Below, piece after piece: positions 26,161 to 28,920 of a stretch of 64,000 nt of DNA. Each line of letters starts with the position of its first letter. The first letter of the stretch is position 1. The position numbers were made by a program, and so were the translations under genes. The notes below the pieces were generated by a model. That model was not told the origin of the DNA and did no database searches. It worked only from the letters and a program-made list of their open reading frames with translations. Where the stretch lies: NCBI GenBank assembly GCA_964016885.1, contig OZ024745.1, positions 16,740,001-16,804,000 on the forward strand. Reading direction: 5' to 3'. The DNA comes from Eledone cirrhosa (taxonomy: Eukaryota).

Positions 26161-26841
26161 GTATCCAATGATGTTGACATGTTATTCTTTTTGGTAAATA
26201 TCATCTTGGTTAAGAGAGTGGGACTGGCTTTGTGCAGTGTCTTTGCTCACTATAAAAGCTTCACGACACAGGCATTGCTTTATATCTGGAGATCTCTCTG
26301 CACTTGTCGTCACATGTTACCATGGGCCCAACACTATGTGTCAATAATTGTCACAAGTGTAGTGTTTGTACCAGAGTTTTCAAGTCGCTGGCTGGACTAA
26401 AAAGTCACACTCGTTCAGCGCATCGGTAGGGGTTCTCCTACATGGATATAAAGTAGTGGCCGTACTCGAAAACGAGTTGGCAGCCACCATATATATGTGC
26501 ATATATATATATATATATATATATATATATATATATATATATATATATATATATATATATATATATATATATATATATATATATATATTTATATATATAT
26601 ATATATACATATATATATATAATTAAGTTAAAAATGTACATCCACATATGTATACTGAAATACTAGTATGCATATGAATACACACACGTATACATATGTA
26701 GATGTACCGAGTTTTTCACTGGTCACTTTACTGTGAGTGTCCAGCTATTCTGTATGTAAACACACAGACAAACCGGTTTTTAGAGTCATACTGGTTTTTG
26801 AGGAAACACCTTTCCTCTATTCTCCAGAAAGCCAGACAAGG

Positions 26842-26886
26842 AATATTGAACTAGTTTCGATGTTGTTACATCTCATCAGCAATATT
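26842..26886 (-). ncRNA. Type I hammerhead ribozyme
   Basis: Reverse complement of 27492-27536. Confidence 0.88.
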
Positions 26887-27491
26887 TACCTATCTTCCGG
26901 CCTCTCTAGAGAATCGTAAAAGCACATATCGTTATATGCTTTTTCTATGAAAATTAGTAGTGGGCAGACTAATTTGCATAGAGCGTGAGTACGTACCGGT
27001 TCAACGGAGACGATAAAAACAAATAACGAAACGAAATTAAATTTCGTTTCGTTTGTAACTCACTTTTGTATGACTGACGCTTAAACAATTAAGTTAAAAA
27101 TGTACATCCACATATGTATACTGAAATACTAGTATGCATATGAATACACACACGTATACATATGTAGATGTACCGAGTTTTTCACTGGTCACTTTACTGT
27201 GAGTGTCCAGCTATTCTGTATGTAAACACACAGACAAACCGGTTTTTAGAGTCATACTGGTTTTTGAGGAAACACCATTTTTAACTTAATTGTTTAAGCG
27301 TCAGTCATACAAAAGTGAGTTACAAACGAAACGAAATTTAATTTCGTTTCGTTATTTGTTTTTATCGTCTCCGTTGAACCGGTACGTACTCACGCTCTAT
27401 GCAAATTAGTCTGCCCACTACTAATTTTCATAGAAAAAGCATATAACGATATGTGCTTTTACGATTCTCTAGAGAGGCCGGAAGATAGGTA

Positions 27492-27536
27492 AATATTGCT
27501 GATGAGATGTAACAACATCGAAACTAGTTCAATATT
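27492..27536 (+). ncRNA. Type I hammerhead ribozyme with intact core
   Basis: Stem I AATATTG/CAATATT, CTGATGA 27499-27505, stem II GATGT-AACA-ACATC, GAAA 27520-27523, palindromic CTAG, predicted cleavage after GUU at 27529. Confidence 0.88.
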
Positions 27537-28920
27537 CCTTGTCTGGCTTTCTGGAGAATAGAGGAAAGGTGTTTCCTCAAAAACCAGTATGACTCTAAAA
27601 ACCGGTTTGTCTGTGTGTTTACATACAGAATAGCTGGACACTCACAGTAAAGTGACCAGTGAAAAACTCGGTACATCTACATATGTATACGTGTGTGTAT
27701 TCATATGCATACTAGTATTTCAGTATACATATGTGGATGTACATTTTTAACTTAATTGTTTAAGCGTCAGTCATACAAAAGTGAGTTACAAACGAAACGA
27801 AATTTAATTTCGTTTCGTTATTTGTTTTTATATATATATATATATATATATATATATATATATATATATATATATATATATATATATATATATATAAATA
27901 TATATATATATATATATATATATATATGTATATATATGTATATATATATATGCATATATCTATATAAACATATGTACACACACAGATATATATATATATA
28001 TTTCTCCTTATTTATTCAATTAATTAGCACTGTGTTTTTTTAATAATATAAATGTAAGATAATTCTTACGTATGCAAATAATATGAATGTTATTAACATT
28101 TAATACAAGCTGGAATAAATATTTTACTTTTCTTTTTGTCGGCAAAAAAAAAAATATATATATATAATTACAATGAATAACGATTTGGCTAAATCGGAAC
28201 ATCTGATTAGCACAAATAGTATACTTTTTACTTTTATTTCAATTACATATTTATTGAAGTTCATTCATTTTGAATCAGAACGATTTACATTTATCTGCGA
28301 AATCGTTTAGAATAATTTGCATGACTATAAAGATCAGGATGACAAGAGCAAAATCATATGCAAACATAAGATCACTGGTTGCATAGACCAGTGTGTTTTG
28401 TTTAGGCTTTAAGTTGTTGGGGGTTGTAAAGATCTCCTGATGTTCGAAACTCAACGGAAATTCCATTGTTGCCATCTTGAAAACCGTGCTTTTTGTTTGA
28501 GGTAGCACATATTTTACCAGAGAAAAGAAATTAAAGTTATGCGGTCCAGAATGTATCGTTCCTTCAAAGGAAAAAAAGAGTGATGCTCCTATGGTTATCG
28601 CATACATATCTGAAAATAACAAACAGGTAGGCCCTGGTAAGTATTGTCATATTAATGAAAATATATTATGTTTTGTGTTCAGCCTTTCTAAATTAATACA
28701 GCTGCAAGTAAACAAATTGTTTATATCATTATGTATACACATTTCATGATAATTATAATTGAAAATCATAGATGTTTCTCAAAGTTTAGCAATCTTATTC
28801 ACCATAAAAATGTGAATATGAAATACTAACGTACACCCATATATAGAACATAGAAATACACACACATATCTTTACAGAAACACACACACACACACAATAT
28901 ATATATATATGAGTTTGCTT

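Follow-up and report, generated by a model that had tools for sequence, protein, structure and literature searches.

A 466-nt hammerhead repeat of Eledone cirrhosa with two fixed insertion ends: a non-LTR retrozyme probably written into the genome by a Penelope-like enzyme

Introduction

A single locus of the Eledone cirrhosa genome raises two questions on mobile genetic elements: are the circular RNAs of animal retrozymes reverse-transcribed into the genome, and by what; and how does the tail plus inverted copy of Penelope-like elements (PLEs) originate? The locus lies in a 64,000-nt stretch of DNA (hereafter “the window”, meaning the whole stretch analysed), and is made of two arms of a hammerhead-bearing 466-nt unit that meet head-to-head within a (TA)n run. 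The original prediction had taken it for a candidate retrozyme, copied past unit length twice as from a circular RNA. In published descriptions, a PLE insertion contains a 5'-truncated copy in inverted orientation, and only one of its ends bears a tail, of 30-40 bp (PMC8557442; PMC3846280); in vitro, two internal start sites delimit that tail, and both target strands are nicked and extended (PMC11167929). Reverse transcription of more than one unit has been proposed to use circles as its template (Cervera and de la Pena 2014, PMC4209133), and PLEs have been called “a strong candidate” in the literature for reverse-transcribing retrozyme circles. These and all later statements on published systems refer to the consulted parts of the sources. 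On balance, we consider it fairly probable that the locus is a young insertion of a non-LTR retrozyme, produced by a PLE RT/GIY-YIG enzyme likely acting in trans, through twin priming on what was likely a 466-nt circle.

Anatomy of the locus

The two predicted arms of a 466-nt unit, with a minus arm of 656 nt, are borne out by exact periodicity and by exact inverted matches. The period of 466 nt is exact at 26621-26810 (190 nt) and 27276-27365 (90 nt), with none at 465 or 467, and the inverted matches join 26621-27102 to 27276-27757 (482 nt) and 27013-27276 to 27568-27831 (264 nt). The 5'-to-5' meeting point is where it had been placed, and the features are collected in Table 1, with unit position 1 as the first base after the predicted ribozyme cut (27530). 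As predicted, the arms begin and end at different registers of the unit, each of them crosses its own predicted cut site, and both 3' ends run into (TA)n. The proposed plus-arm length of 554 nt stands if the last two bases are assigned to the TA run, and is otherwise 556 nt. The tail is found at the plus-arm end only.

Table 1. Coordinates of the insertion, its parts and its flanks in the window.
Feature	Position	Strand
(TA)n microsatellite, left flank, inferred insertion target	26489-26620	
Arm ending at site A, 656 nt, unit 39-466 then 1-228	26621-27276	-
Type I hammerhead motif, minus-arm copy; predicted cut 26849/26848	26842-26886	-
Head-to-head (5'-to-5') junction, single base common to both arms	27276	
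Arm ending at site B, 556 nt, unit 213-466 then 1-302	27276-27831	+
One full 466-nt unit, 36% G+C, without ORF	27276-27741	+
Type I hammerhead motif, plus-arm copy; predicted cut 27529/27530	27492-27536	+
Tail, the ~70 nt between the fixed 3' ends A (unit 228-233) and B (unit 300-302)	27758-27831	+
Perfect hairpin within the tail (13 bp in the predicted fold)	27791-27819	+
(TA)n microsatellite, right flank	27832-28001	

The window copy is a young insertion, and its arms are identical: no difference appears at the 251 same-arm and 717 between-arm positions compared, in agreement with the lack of mismatches noticed beforehand. The expected absence of a credible ORF also holds, the longest stop-free frame in a circular reading of the unit being 57 codons on the plus and 60 codons on the minus strand. 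The predicted fold of the unit has an energy of -162.7 kcal/mol (z = -10.75 against shuffles). Hammerhead cores are situated at 27499 (plus) and 26879 (minus). As each arm has one hammerhead, no monomer can be set free from this locus by double cleavage, and the window copy is a dead-end daughter.

A dispersed family

The family was counted by exact patterns across the 3.0-Gb genome, with reversed patterns as controls. There are 933 exact matches to the hammerhead core of the window, 8,651 to a 30-nt tail motif (unit matches) and 1,983 to the plus-arm end B followed by (TA)n, with zero matches to the reversed pattern in each of the three cases; end A followed by (TA)n gives 472 forward matches, the count being restricted to these, as reverse matches were each counted several times. 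The genome thus holds about 2,000 dispersed insertions of the ORF-less hammerhead repeat, as the original prediction required, and the tandem multimers that it also called for are found as arrays of 4 to more than 70 units at 466-nt spacing. The smallest loci measure less than 100 nt, and the largest are arrays of 31 and about 70 units. Approximately 140 of the loci were read. Single haplotypes occur on several contigs, subfamilies compared with the window unit have identities of about 88-90%, 92-95% and 97-100%, and many insertions with 0 differences support the suspected recent activity. A search with variant hammerheads led to an older sister family with units of 434-490 nt and 65-75% identity, which shares the same core, a homologous tail, the same two ends and the head-to-head layout; the folds of relatives have z values from -3.9 to -15.9 (four units, 25 shuffles each).

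The unit is also contained in six public sequencing runs (four studies, four coded organisms; run kind not stated), of which, among those listed, none is on record as RNA. The 466-nt head-to-tail joint is present in short-read contigs of four of four runs checked, and loose ends that continue into (TA)n occur at each of the two end sites in one of these runs. Such a contig joint is identical for a circle and for tandem DNA, and is therefore uninformative on the choice between them. No bridging contig for the window junction (27276) appears among those listed for the four runs, an absence that proves nothing.

Two fixed 3' ends and two arms

The 3' ends of the insertions occupy two fixed sites, separated by about 70 nt that include the perfect hairpin, whereas 5' ends and arm junctions are spread across the whole unit; the permuted ends that had been anticipated for dispersed copies are therefore restricted to 5' ends and junctions. 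Among the first 100 of the 1,983 B ends (a sample including two loci that are one segmental duplicate), a long inverted arm with its end at A is present in 69 and a short A remnant of about 7-20 nt in 11, so that A accompanies B on inverted arms in 80/100 B-anchored insertions. None has a partner ending at B, 11 meet (TA)n directly without A, 8 are disrupted, unclear or other, and 1 runs beyond the sequence examined. One A-A pair was found among the 62 A ends listed, and the exceptions to A-B pairing, other samples included, comprise two A-A loci (L230 and L281) and one B-B locus (L290). The far side is (TA)n in 91 of the 100 B-end loci, the near side being TA by selection; at the window locus and in a group of ten sets of locus ends both ends lie in (TA)n, save one disrupted end and one N gap. 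Within such a run, a target site duplication would be masked. No terminal direct repeat exists besides the unit itself. This combination of fixed ends and inverted arm is the “tail plus inverted copy” signature of Penelope, and fits twin priming.

The relation between the arms bears on how the second one arose. Out of 68 two-arm loci, 37 fit an A arm contained in the B arm and 15 the reverse, and in 16, as well as at the window locus, each arm extends beyond the other. An arm copied from the other would be contained in it; hence these uncontained arms argue for two independent primings. Arm lengths are uncorrelated (rho 0.16, p 0.20, n 67), and either arm can be far the longer, as at locus A1, where an A arm of 14.3 kb faces a B arm of 346 nt. 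More than one unit is covered by 52 of 90 B arms and 40 of 67 A arms, and 124 of 157 arms cross the cut site. Most arm junctions overlap by 0-4 nt and some lie on palindromes; junctions are mildly enriched in the tail hairpin (25/157 ends in 41 positions, p 0.003-0.015; this count omits ten B-end loci that are duplicate, unplaced or disrupted), where two same-sense cDNAs could anneal.

The hammerhead ribozyme

The motif matches Rfam Hammerhead_HH9 with 36.5 bits (E 2.9e-7), under the gathering score of 52, and no Rfam family reaches gathering level in the window; the miRNA and sRNA matches obtained at E-value level were discarded as hairpin noise. Its parts are a helix I of 7 bp, the CUGAUGA core, helix II, GAAA, a 2-bp helix III that sits inside an invariant palindrome, and a GUU triplet. 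Across 99 loci, which are not independent events, one helix II pair is A-U in 52, U-A in 46 and mismatched in 1, and the majority triplet is GUU or GUC in all 99. Helix I of intact sister-family units is a different one, yet pairs 7/7; their triplet is GUA, and their helix II is further from the canonical form; several sister units had been chosen by an altered-helix-I pattern, and those pair less well. As judged from these substitutions, the ribozyme looks maintained, with compensatory change.

Dimeric hammerheads are described as cleaving in multimers and sparing monomer circles (PMC4209133). In the predictions for the present unit, a dimer fold of -23.0 kcal/mol is favoured over two monomers of -9.8 kcal/mol each, and the core is mispaired in the monomer and circular folds; on prediction only, this arrangement matches cleavage in multimers and sparing of monomer circles. 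In Xenopus, 8 of 9 retrozyme dimers failed to cleave in vitro, according to the source as consulted. The 5' ends are weakly enriched at the cut site (17/157 in 37 positions, p 0.03-0.12), a larger set having given a weaker signal than the initial one (10/108 at unit positions 1-20), and this enrichment is not counted as support.

Penelope-like elements in the same genome

The genome harbors an RT-GIY-YIG PLE family with open frames of 784 codons (146 scored of 19,339 candidates), together with several other PLE families. The window carries the RT-GIY-YIG family at 16512-19069 and, as a mini insertion, at 3285-3538, where the left side is an inverted short end of 21 nt and the right side the long end; this mini insertion and other neighbouring PLE insertions do have the head-to-head geometry that they had been said to share with the retrozyme. 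The abundant PLE family of the window has a tail of about 40 nt with no similarity to the retrozyme tail, and a hammerhead pattern search detected none in 30 of its loci. Neither these 30 loci of one family nor 50 varied GIY-YIG loci yielded an autonomous PLE whose hammerhead or tail is homologous to that of the retrozyme, and profile searches over the examined loci and the 50 GIY-YIG loci returned only nested retrozyme copies. The loci read include no case of the unit joined to an RT-GIY-YIG ORF, and the PLE frames lying beside retrozyme copies are separate insertions nested into the same TA runs. The expectation that no RT ORF would adjoin the copies holds in the loci read as far as joined frames are concerned; the contrary possibility, that copies are always the terminal repeat of an ORF-bearing PLE, finds no instance in 80 PLE loci. 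The PLE-type fixed ends and the same geometry in ORF-bearing PLEs lead us to regard mobilisation by a PLE enzyme as very likely, as far as sequence can tell.

Monomer circle or linear multimer

Reading past unit length is in itself no proof of a circle, since uncleaved read-through of tandem arrays gives the same picture, and to this extent the rolling-circle reading of the original prediction was not secured by arm length; monomer copying is backed instead, indirectly, by the markers described below. The two templates can be told apart by asking whether every unit of an insertion carries a new substitution from the start. Median divergence is 0.8% between the arms of one locus (51 loci) versus 4.5% to other loci, and variants within loci are mostly private. 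At one locus 18/18 full units are identical across both arms, and another has 17 identical units on one arm and 6/7 on the other. Marker 358T is present in 7/7 units of locus L113; out of its 17 matches genome-wide, the 10 outside L113 fall at 9 places, with no run longer than two and most on other backgrounds. Within the 115G lineage (57 matches at 11 places, 10 of them examined), 5G marks 7/7 segments on both arms of L293 only, and 331C marks 4/4 segments on both arms of L294 only. For the four markers tested, the longest run is itself a two-armed insertion. A linear template requires an equally long uniform parent for each locus, and no homogeneous parent array for the private markers was found in this single assembly, from which one could be missing; this favours rolling-circle copying of a monomer.

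Other loci point to larger templates. At L084 (two sites) and L075 (one site), out of 47 two-arm loci, terminal units share variants that are absent from the inner units, which counts against a monomer circle at these loci, as a monomer circle cannot give them; a third apparent case was an alignment artefact at an indel. Locus C744 has a haplotype switch inside one arm, between positions 468 and 70, L054 has unlike haplotypes at its A and B ends, and two haplotypes alternate at C5:63.09 Mb and L290. Alternating haplotypes need at least a dimer template or later duplication, and the mosaic loci need dimer circles, linear multimers, template jumps or later conversion. In the long old arrays (A1, A2 and L120), periodic private variants reveal growth after insertion, so that array length alone is no proof of rolling; in old long arrays the units vary, and in most young multi-unit insertions they are alike. 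An offset test yielded 0.73% at offset 0 versus 0.68-1.0% at +/-1, with no clear trend. Granting PLE mobilisation, the marker distribution makes a circle the probable main template, with good though not overwhelming confidence.

Proposed mechanism and alternatives

The proposed cycle would begin with the transcription of arrays that contain two or more same-sense hammerheads, whose RNA would be cut into monomers by dimeric ribozymes. The helix III palindrome would permit the dimer fold, and the monomer fold, in which the core is blocked, would stabilise the circle once monomers had been ligated. A PLE enzyme would then nick both strands of a (TA)n run and prime twice, at two fixed sites of the RNA: a dimer of the enzyme may bind the ~70-nt tail, one subunit priming at B and the other at A, on opposite target strands. 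Each cDNA would roll past unit length, and the two would be joined by 0-4 nt of microhomology or at hairpins. Some arms would later lengthen by local unequal exchange into satellite-like arrays, and a minority of insertions may derive from larger templates, either dimer circles or linear multimers. A broader reading, which we regard as evenly balanced between right and wrong, would see in the family a genomic record of rolling-circle target-primed reverse transcription, with uniform arrays written in one step, and in its RNA an old lineage without matching pLTR, a free-standing viroid-like parasite of PLEs.

One alternative keeps PLE twin priming and places it on mainly uncleaved, linear read-through RNA, with arrays grown and homogenised at the DNA level and no circle at all. 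The terminal units of L084 and L075, the haplotype switch of C744, the DNA-level growth proven by the periodic variants of the three old arrays, and the many arms that read through the cut site speak for it, as does the Anolis PLE, for which uncleaved RNA was the dominant substrate in vitro and the ribozyme dispensable (PMC11167929, parts consulted). We nevertheless deem it unlikely, given the private markers fixed on both arms of L293 and L294 without a parent array in the assembly, the 358T marker in every unit of L113, the longest marker runs being the two-armed insertions themselves, the uniformity of young multi-unit insertions beside heterogeneous old arrays, and a ribozyme kept with compensatory change that a purely linear cycle would not need. 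The unit could instead be the pLTR of an autonomous PLE located elsewhere, and its copies 5'-truncated forms of that element: every end feature is that of PLE insertions, Xenopus retrozymes are related to pLTRs, and just ~140 of the ~2,000 loci were read. This seems very improbable to us, as arms longer than one unit re-enter the unit and not a 3' UTR or ORF, nearby PLE ORFs belong to nested insertions of their own, and the 80 PLE loci hold no unit homology joined to an ORF.

Two further explanations concern the inverted arm itself. Self-priming by fold-back of one cDNA, or of antisense RNA, would produce it with no second target-primed event; it has been proposed for rotifer PLEs (PMC3846280, as consulted), and the enrichment of junctions in the tail hairpin, with some on palindromes, is in its favour. 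It is contradicted at the 16 loci and the window locus where neither arm lies inside the other, and it sits badly with the disparity of arm lengths at A1, where the A arm is by far the longer, and with the 0-4 nt overlaps at most junctions; we hold it to be highly doubtful as a general account. Lastly, the inversion could be a chimera made by assembly or fold-back, or else the repeat could be a plain DNA satellite in which a hammerhead motif arose by chance; the sub-threshold Rfam score may be adduced for this. The uncontained arms, their uncorrelated lengths and their short overlaps dispose of a fold-back assembly chimera, and the locus is not single-copy, a condition that the original prediction had named as refuting, but one of ~2,000 insertions. 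An architecture that recurs, with varying junctions, at 80 of 100 loci, arms that are not mirror copies, compensatory changes in the ribozyme, and the contigs of the four public runs, with unit, joint and (in one run) loose (TA)n ends, leave this last explanation with hardly any probability.

The family places PLE footprints directly on a retrozyme at about 2,000 loci, with a countable rule per insertion (one A end, one B end). Besides, the marker analysis offers a phylogenetic way of testing for a monomer bottleneck, which mussel, coral or axolotl assemblies could be put through as well; an in vitro assay is given a short cis element and a target to work with; and a route is outlined by which satellite arrays of several kilobases can arise at once.

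Comparison with known systems

Judged on its sequence, the family is a non-LTR retrozyme by all genomic criteria: tandem type I hammerhead units, no coding capacity, no LTR, dispersed copies, a 466-nt, strongly self-paired unit of 36% G+C, and autonomous PLEs in the same genome. It also has the traits of PLE insertions, namely an inverted 5'-truncated partner, a one-sided tail and a microsatellite target. The monomer, supposed at the outset to be large, is not unusual in size: the consensus lengths published for retrozymes cover 51-972 bp (Li et al., bioRxiv 10.64898/2026.07.22.740005), and the units of mussel, a mollusc in which retrozymes are known, measure 350-390 bp (PMC7229834). The literature searched, with PMC7229834 and the 2026 preprint covered in the main-text sections consulted, yielded no description of a cephalopod retrozyme and, within the same scope, no retrozyme insertions with PLE tail and inversion, no counted A-with-B rule and no monomer-template marker test. 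The word “inverted” is absent from the main text of PMC7229834, and the consulted sections of 10.64898/2026.07.22.740005 contain no insertion junctions. What distinguishes this retrozyme is an unusually readable insertion mechanism; the route has long been proposed for animal retrozymes and, in the literature searched, had not yet been read from insertions.

The family resembles metazoan non-LTR retrozymes (PMC7229834; bioRxiv 10.64898/2026.07.22.740005, in the parts consulted) in being formed by non-coding tandem repeats of a few hundred bases and low G+C, with one type I hammerhead per unit, sizes from monomers to large multimers, RNA with strong predicted self-pairing, and PLEs alongside. 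Two fixed 3' ends, the inverted partner arm and the (TA)n target are, in comparison with those descriptions, features of the present family; expression and circles have been demonstrated for published metazoan retrozymes, whereas the present family is known from genomic sequence alone. In Xenopus, 24 of 57 families have a homologous pLTR (22 elements, 21 of them PLEs, in the account consulted), in contrast with the present family, for which no homologous pLTR was found in the 80 PLE loci examined.

As in EN+ PLEs (PMC8557442; PMC3846280; PMC11167929), the arms are head-to-head, the tail is one-sided, the target is AT-rich or (TA)n, two priming sites delimit the tail, 5' truncation occurs and the hammerhead lies upstream of the tail. 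The present family differs from them in the lack of an ORF, in a tail of ~70 nt and in that both arms can be multimers. A near-strict A-with-B pairing is counted here, whereas the PLE studied in vitro showed no start-site difference between strands in the sections consulted (PMC11167929). Non-autonomous PLE derivatives of Chlamys, such as MRC1 (PMC8557442), are among the closest known systems. The short helix III and palindromic loop are shared with the minimal or dimeric hammerheads of PLEs and of the newt satellite (PMC4209133), as is the predicted behavior, active as a dimer and quiet in the monomer circle; helix I (7 bp plus further pairing) and helix II (4-5 bp) are nearer to the canonical metazoan type I than to the PLE minimal form.

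Twin priming itself has a counterpart in another class of elements. In L1 twin priming, each of two target nicks primes a cDNA, and microhomology joins the products into a 5' inversion; the position of the second site varies, and there is no overlap between the arms. In the present family, unlike L1, both sites are fixed, 70 nt apart, and the two arms copy the same sequence.

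The (TA)n Runs and Their Occupants

The TA runs of this genome are nests of many families of the Penelope-like element (PLE) type: in the loci fetched from it (L numbers), (TA)n runs are bordered by over 20 different element ends that recur, and several of these ends occur as pairs spaced 40–80 nt apart. The most frequent foreign end in these loci (41 cases) is the long end of the small hairpin insertions (Table), a separate (TA)n-targeting family with a tail (a stretch at one end only) of ~80 nt. The additional hammerhead-like motifs of the window lie inside head-to-head mini insertions flanked by TA runs.

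The abundant young PLE family comprises 19,339 candidates in the genome and also targets (TA)n, with a tail of ~40 nt. Its RT-GIY-YIG frame spans 784 codons, the long stretch upstream of it looks like a second frame, and the 3' region measures ~1.5 kb; no hammerhead was detected in this family by pattern search.

Features recorded in the window and in fetched loci (G000, genome; C, contig)
Feature	Position in window	Other loci	Remarks
Small hairpin insertions	14684–14861; 16278–16469; 25147–25388; 25411 onward		180–240 nt
Further hammerhead-like motifs	32173–32377; 14114 (+); 14545 (-)		Families unrelated
Young PLE family	16512–19069; 3285–3538	L189–L194	Very abundant
Sister retrozyme family		G000:C3:356476001-356492000	Example locus
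RT-bearing non-LTR retrotransposon	33727–55586		At least five related copies, clustered; RVT_1, zf-RVT, Exo_endo_phos matches
Family D12	922–1103 and eight more places		Abundant interspersed repeat, ~180 nt

Retrozyme Families and Unusual Arrays

An older sister retrozyme family (L159–L188, L197–L198; units of 434–490 nt, 65–75% identity) shares the hammerhead core of the main family, has a homologous tail, is inserted head-to-head and forms arrays >15 kb; window positions 3190–3264 are likely a decayed end fragment of it.

Within the main family, the 5'-most 1.2 units of the L210 array (G000:C744:11001-20000) carry a different haplotype, the switch falling between unit positions 468 and 70, around the predicted ribozyme cut site; two different monomers were possibly joined end-to-end. 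Two haplotypes alternate with period two along the arms of L211–L212 (G000:C5:63084001-63100000), L290 and L111, which would fit either heterodimer circles or dimer duplication. Within-locus substitutions at unit positions 24–27 and 33 recur in many unrelated loci. L078 and L079 (G000:C1, 55.97 and 55.99 Mb), 17.7 kb apart, are identical in insertion and flanks, and represent a segmental duplication or an assembly duplicate.

In public sequencing runs X4–X6, from three other organisms, the unit is present as only 1–4 contigs, self-closing at 466 nt and carrying variants found in subfamilies of this genome.

Other Repeats in the Window

The non-LTR retrotransposon cluster shows a repeat spacing of ~4.4 kb, and D12 is SINE-like by its size and spread.
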